Sequence record: NC_054921.1
Reading direction: 5' to 3' (one strand)
Length of the DNA stretch: 64,000 nucleotides
Source: Escherichia phage vB_EcoM_IME537
In this document: one piece after another, positions 3,769 to 47,014 of the stretch
Layout of the letters: each line of letters opens with the position of its first letter
Position numbering within the stretch: position 1 is the stretch's first letter
Made by a program: the position numbers and the translations under genes
The notes under the pieces: generated by a model
What the model was told of the DNA's origin: nothing
Database searches by the model: none
Seen by the model: only the letters and a program-made list of their open reading frames with translations

Positions 3769-4158
3769 TTAACGATTAAAATCAGCAGCAATTGTTTCCG
3801 CAACAATTTGAGCAGCAACAATTAGACGTTCATCTGCATTACCGCAATAATTATCTTCAAGGCGTTCACCGCATGAAGTCATAATAAATTTAGCACCAGC
3901 ATTTAGAGATTCTGCCGTATGTTTGCGCATCAGTTCAATCCATTTATCACTCACTTCACGATCGATAGCTTCATAATATGCATGACGAGCAGGTGCAGAT
4001 TTAATTTTGTTCTGAATAACTTCCATTGCGTTATCAGAAAGAGACAAAACCCATGCTCGACGAATTTTATTTTGGTTTTGTGGATTTGATTCAGAACGCA
4101 CGTGTTTTGGCTGAATATCTTTTACATCAACAGTATAATTCACAGTAATTTTAGTCAT
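3769..4158 (-). CDS. rpbA: RNA polymerase-binding protein RpbA
   Basis: 129-aa ORF in the T4 rpbA position. Confidence 0.8.
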
Positions 4159-4167
4159 AATACACCT

Positions 4168-4356
4168 TTAGTCATAATAATCAGTAACAGTCCAAGCATC
4201 ATTTCTGTTGGACATTATTTTCGTATATTCTGATTTAAATGCATTCTTAAGCATAGATTCAGTAACTATATGCTCTTCATTAGAAAAATTATTTCTCAGA
4301 ATATATCGTTTTATTTCAGGAATAGTTAATAGATGCTGTCCAGTTGAATATTCCAT
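4168..4356 (-). CDS. 45.2: hypothetical protein (T4 45.2 position)
   Basis: 62-aa ORF with ATG start; synteny. Confidence 0.55.
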   Translation of the reverse strand: MEYSTGQHLLTIPEIKRYILRNNFSNEEHIVTESMLKNAFKSEYTKIMSNRNDAWTVTDYYD

Positions 4357-16607: not shown

Positions 16608-17077
16608 TTTAAACTCTTTCTAAGCTGCTTCTTAAATGAAGCTATTAATTGTGTTTTGGTGTCAGATTCATTATATTCAAATCCTCTTTGAAGCATCTCA
16701 GCTATCATTTCCTCTTTTCCTAAACGAGAAAATTCCTTTGATTTATCTCCAACAAAGTTAGGGTGAATATTATTTTGGGTGTAATCGGATTTTAAATAAG
16801 TAAGTAAATTTTCTAACCATTCAAGATAATCAACGCCTTGTCCCTTTAAGCCAGAACGATTAAATTTGTGCTTCATTTGACCTTCCGCAGCATTGCAGAG
16901 ATTACAGAGCAATCCACGTACCTTTCCTGCTTTTGGTCCATTTAATTCATGGTCATGGTCAAGGTGATTAGCTTGAACATCAGGATTTAGTTCTCGTTGG
17001 CAAATTAAGCATTTACCGTTTTGTGCATTATAAAATTTTTGTTTTTCTTCTTTGTATAATTTGCCAGTCAATAACAT
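16604..17077 (-). CDS. 49: endonuclease VII (Holliday junction resolvase) gp49
   Basis: 157 aa; sequence as remembered for T4 endo VII (zinc-binding CxxC motifs). Confidence 0.92.
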   Translation of the reverse strand: MLLTGKLYKEEKQKFYNAQNGKCLICQRELNPDVQANHLDHDHELNGPKAGKVRGLLCNLCNAAEGQMKHKFNRSGLKGQGVDYLEWLENLLTYLKSDYTQNNIHPNFVGDKSKEFSRLGKEEMIAEMLQRGFEYNESDTKTQLIASFKKQLRKSLK

Positions 17078-31578: not shown

Positions 31579-31620
31579 ATATACCCCTTTAGTTAGATAA
31601 ACCTATTTATAACTTTTGCA

Positions 31621-32202
31621 CTAACCGAGCTTTTTAGTTAATTCATTCCAATGTTTTCTACACAAAGAAACATAAATTTCATCACCAATACAGATTTGAT
31701 TACCTTCTTTAACGGGTGTTCCATCTTCCATTAATCGAGCTGTCATAATAGCTTTTTTACCACAATGACAAACTGCCTTTAGTTCAATAAGTTTATCTGC
31801 AATCGCCAAAAGTTCTTTAGAACCTTCAAATAATTTTCCGGCGAAATCAGTCCTTAGACCATAGGCCATAACAGGAACATTATATGTATCAACAATTCGG
31901 CTCAATTGATGCACCTGTTCAGTTTTTAAAAACTGGGCTTCATCTACAAATACGCAATGAATATCTTTTTGTGCTTCAGCCCATTTATAGAACTCGAAAA
32001 TATCCATATCATCTGTAATAATATTTGCTTCCTGCTTAATTCCAATGCGAGAAACGACTTCACAGACAGAATCGCGAGTATCAATAGCAGGCTTAAGAAC
32101 TAATACACTCATTCCGCGCTCTTTATAATTATGCGCAGCAGTCAAAAGAGAAGCAGATTTTCCAGCATTCATTGCTGCATAAGTAAAAATTAAACTCGCC
32201 AT
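31621..32202 (-). CDS. tk: thymidine kinase
   Basis: 193 aa; P-loop AAMNAGKS; C-terminal zinc-ribbon cysteines. Confidence 0.9.
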   Translation of the reverse strand: MASLIFTYAAMNAGKSASLLTAAHNYKERGMSVLVLKPAIDTRDSVCEVVSRIGIKQEANIITDDMDIFEFYKWAEAQKDIHCVFVDEAQFLKTEQVHQLSRIVDTYNVPVMAYGLRTDFAGKLFEGSKELLAIADKLIELKAVCHCGKKAIMTARLMEDGTPVKEGNQICIGDEIYVSLCRKHWNELTKKLG

Positions 32203-32211
32203 ATCACCTTC

Positions 32212-32397
32212 TTAAAGCGTATTCACATAAGCTATTAATTCGTTTTCTTTCTTATCAAACCGATCAGCAAATTCTTCTTGCTGTTCGGGAGATAGCGGGC
32301 CGTATTCATCATAAAAGGTGTTTGCTTCTGTATGCTCATCTAGAAGTTCATGGATAAGCTCAAACAATTTATCTTTTTGTTCTTTACTCAGACTCAT
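32212..32397 (-). CDS. small highly acidic protein
   Basis: 61 aa, strongly D/E-rich. Confidence 0.45.
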   Translation of the reverse strand: MSLSKEQKDKLFELIHELLDEHTEANTFYDEYGPLSPEQQEEFADRFDKKENELIAYVNTL

Positions 32398-32563
32398 ATA
32401 TTAATTTCCAGGAGTTTTAAAATAATTCGCTTTTGCTTAAATATTTCCATAGTTAAATGACCAGTATCTTTTTGACCGATTCCAATGGCAAAACCTTTAT
32501 TGACAGCGAGTTCAATTAAATTATCAAGCTCACGTAACACTTCATACTGTAACTCAGAACTAT

Positions 32564-32776
32564 TCATTTCGGTTTACCTTCTTTAACGAAATCTGGATAA
32601 GGATAAAATCCCGAATAAAATCCTTCACCTTTATGATTGATGCATCCTTTATTAGAACAATAGCACCAATAATCGAAATCACAAGCCATTTCATCGTTGC
32701 ATAAAGCAAAAACAACTGGCCATTTACACTTTTCACAATGGGCATTTTTAAGAATACTAGTTTGGCTCATAACCAT
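32564..32776 (-). CDS. small cysteine-rich (zinc-binding?) protein
   Basis: 70 aa; CEKC...CNDEMAC...CYC...C. Confidence 0.4.
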   Translation of the reverse strand: MVMSQTSILKNAHCEKCKWPVVFALCNDEMACDFDYWCYCSNKGCINHKGEGFYSGFYPYPDFVKEGKPK

Positions 32777-32994
32777 GTAACCTTTAAGCAGTATTCTTCT
32801 ACATGCTGTTTACGACCTTTCTTATCAATAAAGGTATATTCAACGAATGTTCCAATGTAGTCTTTATCTACGTCATGTGGACTATTAATTGGGCATTTAG
32901 TACGGCAAATGCGTTCCCATTGACGAATAATTACTGCCTTATTCTTTGGGTCATATGGATGTGGATAATGTATATTCATAATAATGGTTCCCAA
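32767..32994 (-). CDS. hypothetical protein
   Basis: 75-aa ORF. Confidence 0.4.
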   Translation of the reverse strand: MGTIIMNIHYPHPYDPKNKAVIIRQWERICRTKCPINSPHDVDKDYIGTFVEYTFIDKKGRKQHVEEYCLKVTWL

Positions 32995-33443
32995 TCAACA
33001 ATCACAATTTCTAATTTAGAGGAATATGTATCTAAAATCCCCTCAATAATATCCCAGTTCCCTTTACCTATGCCTGCACCAATCCTAGGCATATAGATTG
33101 TAGGTTTAATCAGTTTATTTTCACCAAACTCATTTAATTCTAACATACAATTCATTAAAGCGGAATACTCAAAATTTGGCCCTGGTTGAAATTGAGTATA
33201 AAGGTTGAAGCAATACGCTTTATGAGTCCTAAAGTATTTTTCATAGACTGAGTAAGAACCAAGTTTAGTTACATCACCCCATTCAGTCTGTAATTTATCA
33301 GCTTCCAAAATTTTAGGGAAAGCTTTGGTTAATTGACCCGCTACGCCTGAACCCATAGTATGAAAACAATTGCATCCATGCGCAATATTTTTACCTTCAG
33401 CGAAAAGGGCGACAATATCGCCCTTGATATATTTTACAATCAT
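32976..33443 (-). CDS. macro-domain-like protein (ADP-ribose binding or processing)
   Basis: 155 aa; HGCNCFHTMGSGVAGQL resembles the macro-domain N-x(6)-GGGV loop. Confidence 0.5.
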   Translation of the reverse strand: MIVKYIKGDIVALFAEGKNIAHGCNCFHTMGSGVAGQLTKAFPKILEADKLQTEWGDVTKLGSYSVYEKYFRTHKAYCFNLYTQFQPGPNFEYSALMNCMLELNEFGENKLIKPTIYMPRIGAGIGKGNWDIIEGILDTYSSKLEIVIVDWEPLL

Positions 33444-33787
33444 CTAGTACTCAATCCTCGATTATAAGAATCTACCAAACGGTCAACCATTGAATGACAA
33501 GCGGCTTTATCTTTCTCCTCCGCAACTGAACATTCTAAGGTATTCCACTTTTTAGCATATCGTTTTAATAATGTATCGTTTTTGTATCTGCTTGATTTAT
33601 CTCTTTCTCCGTCTTTATATGCATATATTAATTTCTGCGCAAATTCAGCTTGGCATGCTTTATTTTTCCCACAATAATCTGCCGCAGTGCGATTTACATA
33701 CTCTCTAATTTCAGTATATGATGTATTTGCTAACGCAGAAGCAGAAAATGAAATTAATCCTATACATAAAACCAAAATTTTAGTCAT
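33440..33787 (-). CDS. vs: valyl-tRNA synthetase modifier Vs
   Basis: 115 aa with signal peptide; T4 synteny. Confidence 0.75.
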   Translation of the reverse strand: MTKILVLCIGLISFSASALANTSYTEIREYVNRTAADYCGKNKACQAEFAQKLIYAYKDGERDKSSRYKNDTLLKRYAKKWNTLECSVAEEKDKAACHSMVDRLVDSYNRGLSTR

Positions 33788-34325
33788 TTACTATTTCCAA
33801 AAGTTTATTATTTTTAAGGTAATTAGCCTTTTCTAGGACTTCAGAAGCATATTTAGAACCTGCTTTAACATTCCATCCCGAATTATAAGAGGATATTGCC
33901 TTTCTTATATCGCCCTTATGTATATTTAACCAATAAGAAAGTTCAATGTACGCCCAGGAAGCTGAATTGGACCGTTTATTCAACATTCTTTTTATTTCAG
34001 CATCGGTCATATTATAACCAAGTTCCTTAACTCTCGCTCGCATAGTAGGCAAATAATTTTGGAACATTCCATAAGCGTGATGCTTTGGTTTAGATTTTAA
34101 ATTAACTCCGGCAGAGCTTTCTTGCCATAAAATAGCAGCCATTATATGACCTAATCCACCCTTGTGGATATTTTTATGTGTTTTATATTTTCCATCCTTA
34201 GAAAATTGTTCCCCGAATTGATACGCGTAACGCATGTTATCGAGTTGGACATTACTGAAAGTATGCTCGGAGCTATGTGCCATCATTGAAATGGCCAATA
34301 GACCAGCGAGTAGTGCTTTTCTCAT
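33780..34325 (-). CDS. vs.1: secreted lytic-transglycosylase-like protein
   Basis: 181 aa; signal peptide; SLT-like motif region. Confidence 0.6.
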   Translation of the reverse strand: MRKALLAGLLAISMMAHSSEHTFSNVQLDNMRYAYQFGEQFSKDGKYKTHKNIHKGGLGHIMAAILWQESSAGVNLKSKPKHHAYGMFQNYLPTMRARVKELGYNMTDAEIKRMLNKRSNSASWAYIELSYWLNIHKGDIRKAISSYNSGWNVKAGSKYASEVLEKANYLKNNKLLEIVND

Positions 34326-34332
34326 GCTTACC

Positions 34333-34794
34333 TCATTGAGTTTTAATTACTGCTTTAGAAGCCTTTCCTGGTAAACGACGACTGTTGATAATTGCCATCC
34401 TACATTGAAGTGACGGGTCTTTGAACTTCGCGTTAGGTTTACAAACTGTAAATCCAAGCCAAAGATTTCCATCTGTGATTTCTAAACGTCCAGGACGATA
34501 TTCAACCCCATCAATAAAATCCTCGTCAATGTCAGGACGCGGAGGCATACTCAGGAATTCATTAACTTCTAAAACATGGTCTTTTATTTTGTGGAATAAT
34601 TCAAAAACATATGTCTCATCAATCTCCCGTTGAATTGCACGGTCAAGAAGATGCTGAGAATATTTTAGATGAAACGATGAGACCCCTGCTGCTTTTGATG
34701 CCTCACGAATCTCATTGTTAATTTGACGAAACTCCGACTCAAAGTGACGACGAAGCTTATTTCGACGGATAAAAACTTCTGTATTGATAGTCAT
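34333..34794 (-). CDS. regB: site-specific RNA endonuclease RegB
   Basis: 153 aa; matches remembered T4 RegB. Confidence 0.9.
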   Translation of the reverse strand: MTINTEVFIRRNKLRRHFESEFRQINNEIREASKAAGVSSFHLKYSQHLLDRAIQREIDETYVFELFHKIKDHVLEVNEFLSMPPRPDIDEDFIDGVEYRPGRLEITDGNLWLGFTVCKPNAKFKDPSLQCRMAIINSRRLPGKASKAVIKTQ

Positions 34795-34853
34795 ATTATT
34801 CTCCTCTTAACTGATAGAAAAATTATACCACAGTCAAGAGGAAAAGTAAACAG

Positions 34854-35132
34854 TTATTCTTTAAATCTAATCAATTTATTCATAGACTTTGAAACTTCTG
34901 CACGAACCTCATGTAGATTTTTGAGCTGTTCAAGACGCTGCTCATAGTAAGCAATTTCATCTTCTTCGAGACAGTCCTGTGAATCTTCTTTAAGATAACG
35001 TGCATAGTCCTGGAAAGCGTTACGAACTACTTCCTGGAAGTCATCAAGACTTTGAATTTTCTTAGGAGCAACAGATACACGACGAGGGGCAGTATAATAC
35101 TCATAACCAAACCCTGCGCTTAATTGGGCCAT
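34854..35132 (-). CDS. vs.3: hypothetical protein (T4 vs.3 position)
   Basis: 92 aa from ATG 35132 with SD GAGGAA. Confidence 0.45.
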
Positions 35133-35398
35133 TAATATTTTTCCTCTGGTTGGAACACAGCACGGCAAGCCCACATACTGGCTTCTTTGAGCTTCGTTTT
35201 AGCAATAGTTAACTGATCGATGCTTTCAGCATAATTCTTCGCGAATTCATAGTCTTCGCAATTATTTAGCACTTCCCAGAATTCGTCATATAAAGCATCA
35301 AAGATAAGTCCTAAACGAACTTCAGCGTCTTTAATAGCATTTACTTTACCGATTTTCTCTTCAGTGTGCGGCTTATAACCTTTAATATCTTCAATCAT
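35132..35398 (-). CDS. vs.4: hypothetical protein at the T4 vs.4 position; candidate Acb2-type cyclic-oligonucleotide sponge
   Basis: 88 aa from ATG 35398 with SD GAGGA; assignment by gene order from regB only. Confidence 0.45.
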
Positions 35399-35612
35399 AT
35401 TTGACTTCCTCACCAGTACATAAATCGTATTCAACTAAACGAATAGGTTCATGAATTCCATATCCTTGAACAGAAATTTCTGTCGTAGGATAAATTCCAT
35501 CAATATCGCCCATATTCCACGCTTCATTAAATTGCTGTTCGCCTGAATTACTAAACCACTCGGCGAAAGCATTTAGCACATCTTCAGAACCTTCAATAAT
35601 TATCTTTGCCAT
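35391..35612 (-). CDS. vs.5: hypothetical protein (T4 vs.5 position)
   Basis: 73-aa ORF. Confidence 0.4.
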   Translation of the reverse strand: MAKIIIEGSEDVLNAFAEWFSNSGEQQFNEAWNMGDIDGIYPTTEISVQGYGIHEPIRLVEYDLCTGEEVKYD

Positions 35613-35974
35613 TACAAACTCTCAGTAAAGGTACGAGCAATAACGTCGCGTTGCTGTTCCGGAGTCAGAGAGTTAAAGCGAACTGCGTATCCGGATACAC
35701 GGATGGTCAGCTGCGGATATTTTTCCGGATGCTTAACTGCATCTTCCAGAGTTTCACGACGCAGAACGTTTACGTTCAGGTGTTGACCACCCTCAATTTT
35801 AACTGTAGGCTGTGTTTCAATTTCAATTTCACGGGCATGCAAACCATAGAAAATTTCTGGGTCTACAAAAGAGTCCTCTTTAAAGGTTTTAGAGACAATA
35901 ATTCGTGCTTGAATACCATCTTCAAAATAAATAGTACCTTTATGTGTGCCTTCAAGAATTTGATATGCTTTCAT
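35612..35974 (-). CDS. vs.6: autonomous glycyl-radical cofactor (GrcA/YfiD-like)
   Basis: 120 aa; C-terminal glycyl-radical motif RVSGYAVRF. Confidence 0.75.
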
Positions 35975-35981
35975 ATAAACC

Positions 35982-36311
35982 TCAATTAGAAAATAAATTT
36001 ATCCAAGATTGTTCTTTAATTAAAAATGGCTCAGAATCATATGCCATTAAACTCTGTGTGATTAGTCCTTTAAAAGGCCCATCAATAAATTCCATGGTAA
36101 AGTATGGAATTTTATTCATTAATCTCGCATTAGGAGCAGTACATAAAACTCTGCATCCTTTGAATACGCCTTTTTGCAATTTGTATTGCTTAGGATAAAA
36201 TTCGCTTAAAATGTTATTTTTTGCCAAAATTTCAAAATGATTCACCAATTTATTTTTAATAGTTTTTGGTGAAAAATAAAGATATTCGAAAAGCTGAGTG
36301 TCTGTCATCAT
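35982..36311 (-). CDS. vs.7: hypothetical protein (T4 vs.7 position)
   Basis: 109 aa from ATG 36311, overlapping the upstream stop. Confidence 0.4.
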
Positions 36312-36850
36312 TGCATTCCGATTACGAAAAACTGTGGACGAGTAATACCACCAATGCAGCATTTACTATTGCAGCAGTGTTGCACAGTTTCAATATGAAT
36401 ATCGTAAATTTTATCCATATCAGGAGATTTAACAGGCTCATCGATTATATACAAAATTCGAGAAAGCGATAAACCTCTGAACTTGCTACCTCTATTACCA
36501 ACAAAACTACGGACAGAATCAGTAAATAAACGGAATCGAATATCATCGCTAGAATAACGAGAAAATTCTTTTTTAATGCGGCCCGCAGAAATTTTAGCGT
36601 AAGCTGAAGTATTAGAAAGAACAATAACTGTTCCACCATCATACAACCAATTAGCGGCAAAATTAGTTACTGCAGTTGATTTACCAGATTGTCTGCCACC
36701 ATCTAAACGAAGTGTACAATATTCTTTAAATAAATGCGACGAATCAGGTACATAAAATCCACTATTACAAATTTCTTCTACTCTAGCATCAGAATGGTGT
36801 GTAAAAGCATTCATCAGGGATAGATAAGGACCAGTTAAAAATGTTCTCAT
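36308..36850 (-). CDS. vs.8: small P-loop NTPase
   Basis: Walker A GGRQSGKST, Walker B ILYIIDEP; start set to ATG 36850. Confidence 0.45.
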   Translation of the reverse strand: MRTFLTGPYLSLMNAFTHHSDARVEEICNSGFYVPDSSHLFKEYCTLRLDGGRQSGKSTAVTNFAANWLYDGGTVIVLSNTSAYAKISAGRIKKEFSRYSSDDIRFRLFTDSVRSFVGNRGSKFRGLSLSRILYIIDEPVKSPDMDKIYDIHIETVQHCCNSKCCIGGITRPQFFVIGMQ

Positions 36851-36991
36851 TTTATTCTCTCTAAATTTGGGCCATTCCATGGCGCATGAATTGTCCATTT
36901 CTGTATTTACCCATTACCGCACTTGGGCTCGACCTTATTACAGGTTGGCGGGAATCCCTCACAGAATCATGAGGTCCAGGTTGTTCCCATG

Positions 36992-37465
36992 TTATTTGAA
37001 CGATTTAACGTACTGAATAGAACCTTTACTATTCACGAAAGCGATTTTACCATTTTTATTATACATGGTAGCAGTACGCTGATAACCATAAGTTTGTTTA
37101 CCAGATTGATAACCAACTAATGCGAAATTATCTTCACCCATTTTATTCTGTTTAGCGCGAATACGTTCATGTCCATGCGCCATAAGAACCTTAGCATCAC
37201 CAGTTGCAATGGATCGACGAGTTTTTTCATCTTCAACTGTATTAACAAAATCATCAAATGAATCAAATTTAGCATGAGATTTATTATACAGTTTTCCATC
37301 TACTGCATAATTATATCCCTGTACATCCATCTCAACTTCTGTACCATCATCTAATACAGCAGTAATTTTCTGTCCTTTTTTAAATTTCAAAAGATCAGTA
37401 AAAGATTCAGCAATAATTTGAGAATTAATAGCTGCTTCAGTAATAAATTCTTGATATGTTTTCAT
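36992..37465 (-). CDS. internal-protein-like gene with N-terminal capsid targeting sequence (ipII/ipIII locus)
   Basis: 157 aa; N-terminus MKTYQEFITEA matches the T4 internal-protein targeting sequence. Confidence 0.65.
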   Translation of the reverse strand: MKTYQEFITEAAINSQIIAESFTDLLKFKKGQKITAVLDDGTEVEMDVQGYNYAVDGKLYNKSHAKFDSFDDFVNTVEDEKTRRSIATGDAKVLMAHGHERIRAKQNKMGEDNFALVGYQSGKQTYGYQRTATMYNKNGKIAFVNSKGSIQYVKSFK

Positions 37466-37508
37466 ATGTTTCCTTTAAATGTAAATATTTTAATTAGTAA
37501 CTGTGAAT

Positions 37509-37538
37509 ATACTATCACAGTTCTAGGAGAAAGTAAAC
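37509..37538 (-). promoter_or_regulatory. sigma70-type early promoter within an inverted repeat, upstream of the internal-protein-like gene
   Basis: GTTTACT-N17-TAGTAT; flanking ACTGTGA / TCACAGT. Confidence 0.5.
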
Positions 37539-37542
37539 AACT

Positions 37543-38073
<531 letters not shown>

Positions 38074-38529
38074 TTAAAAGAGGTTGTTCATTATTCGGTA
38101 AAGTGAAGGACCCATCACATATTGCCACTGAGTACGAGGAATAAGAGCAAAAGCGTCCATCTCTGGAATCATAACGCCATCTTTATTTTCAAAATAAGAC
38201 TCGCAATGGCAATTTCTAAACATCTCATGCTCTACTGGAATCGTATAATAAAATAACTGTAAGTCTTTATTACTAGAATATTTAAATACACCTAGGTCTT
38301 CTAGAAGGTCTGGATTATAATTGCTAAAACCAGTCTCTTCTAAACATTCTCTTCGTGCTGCATCTAGTACGCTTAAATCAGAATTTTCTACGCGGCCCTT
38401 TGGGATATCCCAGCGATGTGCCATCATTCCAGGCTTACGAGAACCAGTAACCCGTCCCATGAATAAATCTTTATCTTCGGTCATAAAGATAATACCAGCT
38501 GATAGTGTTTTCATTTTAATTTCCTGCAT
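38074..38529 (-). CDS. nudE: Nudix hydrolase NudE
   Basis: 151 aa; Nudix box GRVENSDLSVLDAARRECLEETG; an alternative ATG at 38514 has a better SD. Confidence 0.8.
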   Translation of the reverse strand: MQEIKMKTLSAGIIFMTEDKDLFMGRVTGSRKPGMMAHRWDIPKGRVENSDLSVLDAARRECLEETGFSNYNPDLLEDLGVFKYSSNKDLQLFYYTIPVEHEMFRNCHCESYFENKDGVMIPEMDAFALIPRTQWQYVMGPSLYRIMNNLF

Positions 38530-43313: not shown

Positions 43314-43389
43314 TGGTCGAGGCAGTAGGGATCGAACCTACGACCTAGGACTTAGAAGGTCCTTGCTCTTCCTTCTGAGCTATGCCCCG
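43314..43389 (-). tRNA. tRNA-Arg: tRNA-Arg (anticodon UCU), CCA encoded
   Basis: hand-folded cloverleaf; T-arm GGTTCGATCC; anticodon loop CTTCTAA. Confidence 0.8.
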
Positions 43390-43392
43390 TAA

Positions 43393-44058
43393 TTAAAATT
43401 TCATTTTTCGACCTTTAAACCATCCTTCTGGAATTGGGTCAGTTTTCTTAATACGTTTAGAAACTTTTTCATCTAATGAATGAATCCACATCATACCAAA
43501 TTGGGAATTCTTTTCTCCTTTCTGGTGATTATTTTTAGCGTGAATTTCTTTCATTTTATTAATAGTTTCAGGAGTATGATGCTTATTTAAAAATCTGCTA
43601 TTATTTAAAAATTTTTCCTTGTATTCAGGAGTTGACCACAAACGTTTAAATACATTTGAACCAATTTTACGATATTTTTCTTGAAGTAAAATATCATTTT
43701 CAAAACGTGATTTAAACGATTTAGCTCCTTTTAAGCTAGCATCTTTCTTCTGGTTTAGCATCCCAGGAATATTTATATGGTCCCATCCACCTTCACCGCC
43801 AAGTTTTAAATTATACACATCTGGTCTATTTAAAAACTCTTCTGTGACAATATTTTTCTCGGCTTCAAGCATAGATTCTTTATCATCAAAATACTCTAAT
43901 ATTTCTTTAGAGAAATTTTCTATACCATACTTGTCTTGGGCTCTTTTTAATAATTTACCAGAACCCATATATCCATCATCTAAATTTTCGGTAGAATGCA
44001 CACCAATATAAATTTTATTATTAATTTTATTTGTTATTTTATAAGTGTAATGGAACAT
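43393..44058 (-). CDS. segB: GIY-YIG homing endonuclease SegB
   Basis: 221 aa; YTYKITNKINNKIYIG...GGEGG; embedded in the tRNA cluster as in T4. Confidence 0.85.
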   Translation of the reverse strand: MFHYTYKITNKINNKIYIGVHSTENLDDGYMGSGKLLKRAQDKYGIENFSKEILEYFDDKESMLEAEKNIVTEEFLNRPDVYNLKLGGEGGWDHINIPGMLNQKKDASLKGAKSFKSRFENDILLQEKYRKIGSNVFKRLWSTPEYKEKFLNNSRFLNKHHTPETINKMKEIHAKNNHQKGEKNSQFGMMWIHSLDEKVSKRIKKTDPIPEGWFKGRKMKF

Positions 44059-44099
44059 AAATATCTCCTATTTCTAAGAGTATTTATGTTCCCAAAATA

Positions 44100-44171
44100 T
44101 GGCCCTGGGTGGAATTGAACCACCATCTGGCGATTATGAGTCGCTTGCTTGAACCTTCCAGCTACAGGGCC
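44100..44171 (-). tRNA. tRNA-Ile: tRNA-Ile (anticodon CAU; lysidine-type assumed by T4 gene order)
   Basis: cloverleaf; T-arm GGTTCAATTCC; anticodon loop CTCATAA. Confidence 0.7.
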
Positions 44172-44177
44172 TTGATA

Positions 44178-44250
44178 TGCTGATTGACGGAATCGAACCG
44201 CCGACATCCTCATTACAAGTGAGGTGCTCTACCTACTGAGCTAAATCAGC
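44178..44250 (-). tRNA. tRNA-Thr: tRNA-Thr (anticodon UGU)
   Basis: cloverleaf; T-arm GGTTCGATTCC; anticodon loop CTTGTAA. Confidence 0.8.
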
Positions 44251-44257
44251 GAAATTA

Positions 44258-44344
44258 CGGAGGCGATAGGATTTGAACCTATGAGTCGCCGGAGCGACTG
44301 CCGGTTTTCAAGACCGGTGCATTAAACCACTCTGCCACGCCTCC
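44258..44344 (-). tRNA. tRNA-Ser: tRNA-Ser (anticodon UGA), long variable arm
   Basis: 87 nt; anticodon loop CTTGAAA; T-arm GGTTCAAATCC. Confidence 0.8.
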
Positions 44345-44346
44345 AG

Positions 44347-44420
44347 TCTCCGCGGCAGGATTTGAACCTGCGACATTCTGCTCCCAAAGCAGACGCTCTA
44401 CCAAACTGAGCTACACGGAG
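44347..44420 (-). tRNA. tRNA-Pro: tRNA-Pro (anticodon UGG)
   Basis: anticodon loop TTTGGGA; T-arm GGTTCAAATCC. Confidence 0.8.
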
Positions 44421-44432
44421 TAAATTAAATTT

Positions 44433-44504
<72 letters not shown>

Positions 44505-44509
44505 AAATT

Positions 44510-44596
44510 TGGTGCGAGAAGTGGGACTCGAACCCACAAGGAAATCATTCCGCAGCATTTTAAGTGCTGTGCCTTTACCAATTTGGCCATTCTCGC
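44510..44596 (-). tRNA. tRNA-Leu: tRNA-Leu (anticodon UAA), CCA encoded
   Basis: 87 nt with long variable arm; anticodon loop CTTAAAA; T-arm GGTTCGAGTCC. Confidence 0.8.
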
Positions 44597-44597
44597 G

Positions 44598-44670
44598 CTG
44601 GGAATAAAGGACTCGAACCTTTGCATCCTGGAATCAAAATCCAGTGCCTTACCAACTTGGCTAATTCCCA
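44598..44670 (-). tRNA. tRNA-Gln: tRNA-Gln (anticodon UUG)
   Basis: anticodon loop TTTTGAT; T-arm GGTTCGAGTCC. Confidence 0.8.

Positions 44671-46317: not shown

Positions 46318-47014
<697 letters not shown>

Follow-up and report, generated by a model that had tools for sequence, protein, structure and literature searches.

A T4-type vs.4/acb2 gene of Escherichia phage vB_EcoM_IME537 is predicted to encode a cyclic-dinucleotide sponge

The window, by which we mean the whole stretch of 64,000 nucleotides from Escherichia phage vB_EcoM_IME537 (NC_054921.1) that was analysed, is DNA of a Tequatrovirus (T4-like phage), and its nearest public genome over 24 kb is that of Escherichia phage vB_vPM_PD112 with 98.7% identity at 94% coverage. 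Using tblastn with the proteins of T4T as queries we found tk, tk.3, tk.4, vs, vs.1, regB and vs.3 to vs.7 in the T4 order, with regB itself at 34333-34794 and the genes regB, vs.3, vs.4, vs.5, vs.6 and vs.7 being contiguous at 34336-36311. The order regB, vs.3, vs.4, vs.5, vs.6, vs.7 and vs.8 is the same as in T4T. The listed proteins from tk to vs.7 are 98.3–100% identical to those of T4 with the exception of Vs.4 (95.5%), and the immediate neighbours from regB to vs.7 show 98.9–100% protein identity. A preliminary description of this DNA had placed an 88-amino-acid ORF into the vs.4 slot by counting genes from regB, and this count is correct, as regB is followed by vs.3 and then by vs.4 just as in T4T. 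The gene sits between vs.3 and vs.5 on the same strand, with vs.6 further upstream and regB further downstream, and is therefore the positional orthologue of T4 vs.4.

The interval between tk and tk.3 (32212-32776, minus strand) is unlike that of T4T, as it lacks tk.1 and has a tk.2 of only 54% identity. It also contains two small ORFs on the minus strand, one of 57 aa at 32394-32567 and a cysteine-rich one of 70 aa at 32564-32776, which have no aligned T4T counterpart and are both 100% identical to PD112. The product of tk.4 (32976-33443, minus strand) does not differ from T4 Tk.4 (100% identity) and gives a Pfam match to the Macro domain with 27.7 bits (cut-off 22); tk.4 shares the early-gene block with anti-defence genes, and its role is to our knowledge uncharacterised. 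At the other end of the block, vs.8 (36308-36962, minus strand) is frameshifted compared to T4: the segment 36962-36855 codes for residues 1-36 of T4 Vs.8 in a frame that ends in a stop, and residues 34-216 come from a different frame at 36865-36311. In PD112 and in Escherichia phage ime09 the shorter product of about 180 aa alone is annotated, and vs.8 could be an N-terminally truncated gene or carry a lineage-specific frameshift. The interval from vs.8 to e (36850-37543) is much shorter than in T4, with denV, ipII and ipIII being absent and replaced by the gene for a DUF7412 protein of 157 aa (36992-37465), which goes by the name of Ip4 in ime09 and is annotated as 'internal virion protein' in PD112. 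The tblastn search with the T4T proteins gave no credible homologue of denV within the 64-kb window, and a weak match of T4 DenV at 16619-16765 (E 2e-4) was discarded as spurious as it lies in an ORF that we take to be T4 gene 49 (endonuclease VII). A T4-type tRNA cluster at 43314-44670 (minus strand) comprises eight genes, namely Arg-tct, Met-cat, Thr-tgt, Ser-tga, Pro-tgg, Gly-tcc, Leu-taa and Gln-ttg.

The ORF described for the vs.4 slot is indeed present at 35132-35398 on the minus strand and consists of 88 codons, starting with the ATG at 35398-35396 and followed by the TAA stop at 35134-35132. A Shine-Dalgarno-like GAGGAAG can be read from the sequence at 35405-35411 (minus strand), 6 nt 5' of this ATG and within the 3' end of vs.5, and a ribosome-binding site is annotated at the equivalent place in phage 132. 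The start of vs.4 and the end of vs.5, with its TGA stop at 35393-35391, overlap by 8 nt (35391-35398, minus strand), a layout that suggests translational coupling of the two genes. At the opposite end the junction TAATG (35130-35134, minus strand) joins the TAA of vs.4 to the ATG of vs.3 (35132-35130), which have one base in common. In T4T vs.4 is found at 3833-4099 (267 nt) and vs.5 at 4092-4313, and both overlaps, vs.5/vs.4 and vs.4/vs.3, are identical to those of the window. The program-made list of ORFs also offered a TTG start at 35434 resulting in 100 aa, which we rejected as it would overlap vs.5 by 44 nt and has no counterpart in the homologues. We prefer ATG 35398 because of the GAGGAAG 6 nt upstream, because the T4 annotation of 267 nt has the same length as the gene counted from this codon, because the crystallised chain in PDB entry 7UQ2 starts at the same ATG and because all 38 non-redundant homologues begin with MIEDIKGY or M[SAP]IEDIKGY. 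A scan for sigma-70 promoters and terminators over 33500-38200 returned 19 sites, which is no excess over the 17.6 ± 3.6 obtained with shuffled sequence; early and middle promoters of T4 are outside the model of this tool.

The preliminary description had proposed an Acb2-type protein from the gene position, and the sequence bears this out. The alignment with T4 Vs.4/Acb2, which had been named there as one way to check the proposal, gave 84 of 88 identical residues (95.5%, residues 1-88, E 2.8e-54) against 7UQ2 ('Vs.4 from T4 phage in complex with cGAMP'), and the binding and hexamer residues discussed below are kept. The protein matches Pfam family PF24729 (Acb2/Tad1 hairpin domain) with 70.9 bits at a gathering cut-off of 27 bits, residues 7-83 covering profile positions 1-58 of 58. 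No NCBIfam model matches it, and PHROGs assigns it solely to families of 'unknown function' (phrog_717). Searching with a profile of 19 Tevenvirinae homologues, we also obtained the structures 8H2J and 8IXZ ('p26') of Acb2 from Pseudomonas phage PaMx33 (E 3e-6), and in a pairwise alignment Y8 and K23 of the window protein align with Y11 and K26 of PaMx33 Acb2. An AF2 model calculated from the single sequence shows two long antiparallel helices (13-46 and 50-81, mean pLDDT 78) forming a hairpin with short segments at both termini as in Acb2. Using this monomer model as query for a Foldseek search of the PDB, 7UQ2 was the best hit (E 7e-10, TM 0.61), followed by the Acb2 structures 8H2X and 8H2J. 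The TM score of just 0.61 may reflect termini that are perhaps ordered solely in the hexamer, and the two-helix fold is assigned also because of the 95% identity to a solved structure. We thus assign the gene, by its sequence, as the orthologue of T4 vs.4/acb2, that is an already known gene in a natural allele which is already in public databases.

T4 Vs.4 forms a hexamer with three bound cGAMP molecules (Jenson et al. 2023, PMC10097602), for which Kd values of about 30 nM (PMC10097602) and about 84 nM (PMC10312549; 3',3'-cGAMP) have been reported. Y8 and F82 stack on the cGAMP bases and Y8, H11, K23 and R79 provide hydrogen bonds or salt bridges, S74N as well as T12I (T12 being a helix cap) abolish the function, and the hexamer is lost on mutation of L29, A66, A73 or A77 and weakened by F33A (PMC10097602). 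All seven residues of the cGAMP pocket (Y8, H11, T12, K23, S74, R79, F82) and all five residues of the hexamer interface (L29, F33, A66, A73, A77) are present in the window protein. In order to place them in the family we compiled vs.4 from 46 Tevenvirinae loci of IMG/VR, resulting in an alignment of 38 non-redundant sequences. Y8, H11, K23, A66, S74, A77, R79 and F82 are invariant in these homologues, T12, L29 and A73 show a conservation of at least 95% and position 33 is occupied by F or L. There is hardly any variation in the N-terminal third and in the last 23 residues, and the middle segment from about 37 to 68 varies in sequence and length.

The four substitutions compared to T4 (A43V, D45N, C50Y and L60I) are all located within this variable middle segment. 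In the model, residues 43 and 45 close helix 1, residue 50 opens helix 2 and residue 60 is reached after about three turns of this second helix. A comparison of 17 Tequatrovirus alleles shows three clusters of variable sites (13-19, 43-52 and 60-68), with position 50 being C, Y, F or D, and I60 is the commonest residue at position 60 among the 38 homologues. That the substitutions touch functional sites was rejected by comparison with the published residue lists, the exception being L60 with the conservative change L60I. In T4 Acb2, L60 forms part of the lining of the collapsed trinucleotide pocket (PMC10312549), and L60F was obtained from a T4 loss-of-function screen, yet this variant still inhibited CapV in vitro (PMC10097602).

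With a probability of roughly 0.93 the window protein is a hexameric cyclic-dinucleotide sponge of the T4 Acb2 type that blunts CBASS; its hexamer, ligand binding, CBASS inhibition and triggering of Panoptes are predicted on the basis of publications on the T4 protein, to which it is 95% identical. The 88-aa product would fold into a two-helix hairpin, six copies of which would interlock as a hexamer with three dimer interfaces, each clamping one cyclic dinucleotide between the N-terminal residues Y8, H11 and K23 and the C-terminal residues S74, R79 and F82, with Y8 and F82 expected to stack on the purine bases of the ligand. The CD-NTase products of the host, 3',3'-cGAMP and related cyclic dinucleotides, would thereby be held at nanomolar affinity, and the free signal would stay below the level that activates CBASS effectors such as the phospholipase CapV, so that abortive infection would be delayed and the phage could replicate. 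Knocking out vs.4 in T4 led to about 50-fold poorer plating on a Cap2-dead CBASS (PMC10097602).

The term cyclic-oligonucleotide sponge used in the preliminary description is right as to the Acb2 identity, but it is too broad for the T4 type, which takes dinucleotides and not cA3 or cAAG. T4 Acb2 does not bind these two trinucleotides, as its helix lacks a kink and there would be clashes with Y37, A57, L60, D61 and T64, and even D61R does not rescue cA3 binding, the geometry of the helix being the cause (PMC10312549). The window protein has Y37, A57, D61 and T64 as in T4 and I instead of L60; T68 is present and the equivalent of R67 is D61, so that the second pocket of the broad-spectrum Acb2 of the PaMx33/JBD67 type, a sponge for both cyclic tri- and dinucleotides, as defined by the equivalents of R67 and T74, is incomplete at the residue level. 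Because these four residues are unchanged and L60I is conservative, the window protein probably does not bind cyclic trinucleotides, as described for T4 Acb2. T4 Acb2 also binds 2',3'-c-di-AMP with a Kd of about 62 nM, and it is this binding that triggers Panoptes (OptSE), a defence system sensing the depletion of its decoy 2',3'-c-di-AMP; T4 mutants escaping Panoptes show loss of acb2 or the change F82C, and the Y8A variant has no activity (PMC12657218). As Y8 and F82 are intact, the phage is probably sensitive to Panoptes, with its Vs.4 acting as the trigger.

Compared to T4, vs.4 carries 15 nucleotide differences, of which 11 are synonymous and four non-synonymous (dN/dS 0.07), and compared to ime09 it carries 11 synonymous and no non-synonymous differences. 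Purifying selection on vs.4 is strong. Because the gene is found by tblastn in 1231 phage records and because of the low dN/dS against T4, the ORF is no product of chance. A protein identical to that of the window (100%) is encoded by Escherichia phage ime09 (AEK12376.1) and by Shigella phage TB004, where it is annotated as hypothetical protein or carries no annotation, so that the same protein allele is present in at least three independent isolates including the window. Single-base frameshifts are seen in the vs.4 homologue of three of the 46 T4-like loci from IMG/VR, namely L044 (around 2740), L047 (around 2570) and L048 (around 2710), and could be sequencing errors or natural losses of acb2 like those of the T4 Panoptes escape mutants. 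A further record (OL505078.1, Escherichia phage BI-EHEC; locus L059), which is classified as Phapecoctavirus, contains a vs.4 homologue of 76% identity with a CDS annotated on its 3' half alone. This record may be chimeric or misclassified, or its vs.4 homologue may be disrupted.

A closer look at the DNA level was taken with PD112, for which 6501 bases of the window could be aligned from tk to e (31600-38100). As many as 29 of the 34 mismatches in this block lie in a patch of 310 bp at 35118-35427, which comprises vs.4 and about 15–30 bp on each side and in which about 1.6 mismatches would be expected if they were evenly spread. Every gene of the block shows no or one mismatch, except for vs.3, vs.4 and vs.5. 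Between the two vs.4 genes there are 21 differences, 13 synonymous and eight non-synonymous, and the best match of the patch in public DNA has an identity of only 96.7%. Since 13 of the 21 differences are synonymous, the patch points to recombination and not to a burst of adaptive point mutations, and it looks like a short recombination tract, that is a gene-sized swap of the acb2 allele. T-even phages commonly show such mosaic exchange. The swap also fits a locus involved in an arms race, without proving one. One might go further and read the swap together with the variation of the middle segment (37-68), which overlaps the second-pocket region of other Acb2 proteins, as ongoing selection either on binding at a non-canonical surface or on escape from sensing of the sponge by the host, be it direct or by way of Panoptes-type decoys. 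We regard this as improbable; if it were true, the V43/N45/Y50/I60 allele and the T4 allele would be expected to have different ligand spectra or to differ in the triggering of Panoptes.

A related possibility is that the protein is a member of the Acb2 family in which these four residues, introduced by the local recombination tract, alter the tip of the hairpin and the region of the second pocket and so shift the ligand spectrum. Such an allele might have gained cA3, cAAG or 3'cADPR, or it might bind the decoy 2',3'-c-di-AMP less well and thereby evade Panoptes. It is true that four of four substitutions fall into the hypervariable segment, that L60 lines the would-be trinucleotide pocket (PMC10312549), that cA3 or 3'cADPR is a ligand of some Acb2 homologues, in place of or besides cyclic dinucleotides, and that a 310-bp divergent patch in an otherwise near-identical block of 6.5 kb fits the exchange of alleles in an arms race. 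However, the other residues that block the trinucleotide pocket are retained, even the exchange D61R was not sufficient for cA3 binding in T4 Acb2 (PMC10312549), Y8 and F82 of the cyclic-dinucleotide pocket, which also bind 2',3'-c-di-AMP (PMC12657218), are intact, and the large share of synonymous differences in the patch speaks for recombination instead of adaptive point mutations. As no pocket residue is changed, we consider a shifted spectrum very unlikely.

It could also be argued that vs.4 is intact but inactive as a sponge, being a conserved leftover that is not expressed or whose product is destabilised by the substitutions. The scan of 33500-38200 yielded no promoter for it, the frameshifted copies in three of 46 related loci suggest that the gene can be lost, and T4 remains viable with loss-of-function mutations in acb2, which were selected on Panoptes hosts (PMC12657218). 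Against this stand the full-length frame with its ribosome-binding site and T4-like coupled overlaps, the dN/dS of 0.07 and the absence of any non-synonymous change among the differences to ime09, the fact that every residue known to be required is unchanged and the occurrence of the same allele in at least three independent isolates. An inactive gene is therefore extremely unlikely, and a functional sponge of the T4 Acb2 type is the reading that we prefer.

The window also contains the gene for Acb1 (gp57B), a protein of 151 aa encoded at 46318-46773 on the minus strand, upstream of 57A and gene 1, which matches 7T26 with an E value of 4e-62. The ORF carries the motifs HST and HIT, which we read as 2H-phosphoesterase-like. 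In the RefSeq record of PD112 its orthologue is annotated as 'RNA ligase'. As judged from these matches the phage encodes the anti-CBASS pair of T4, Acb1 and Acb2, and T4 likewise has acb1 as a companion anti-CBASS gene (PMC10312549).

The orthologue of the window protein is annotated as 'anti-CBASS protein 2' in at least one public record, and nearly all others listed name it a hypothetical protein. The main value of this analysis is thus the correct annotation of a 'hypothetical protein' as an anti-CBASS sponge of a structurally and biochemically characterised type. Acb2 and Acb1 together predict that the phage is resistant to CBASS systems signalling with cyclic dinucleotides and sensitive to Panoptes, and such a predicted profile might be useful for choosing or engineering therapy phages. 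The apparent allele swap illustrates on a small scale how an anti-defence locus may undergo mosaic exchange, and it leaves the known workings of the family unaltered.

Among the known systems, T4 Vs.4/Acb2 (7UQ2) shares the length of 88 aa, the slot between vs.3 and vs.5, the overlaps and all cGAMP-contact and hexamer residues with the window protein and differs in A43V, D45N and C50Y at the tip of the hairpin and in L60I in helix 2. Vs.4 of ime09 and TB004 is the identical protein, and the ime09 gene is set apart by its 11 synonymous changes only at the DNA level. Acb2 of PaMx33 (p26; 8H2J, 8H2X, 8IXZ) belongs to the same family and has the same fold, being also a hexameric cyclic-dinucleotide sponge, even if the identity is as low as about 23%. 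In contrast to the T4 type, PaMx33 Acb2 possesses a second pocket with R67, T74 and a kinked helix and binds cA3 and cAAG with nanomolar affinity (PMC10312549). Acb1 (T4 gp57B; 7T26) is an anti-CBASS protein too, but its fold and mechanism are unrelated to those of Acb2, as Acb1 degrades the cyclic nucleotide signals whereas Acb2 sequesters them intact (PMC12657218, PMC10312549).
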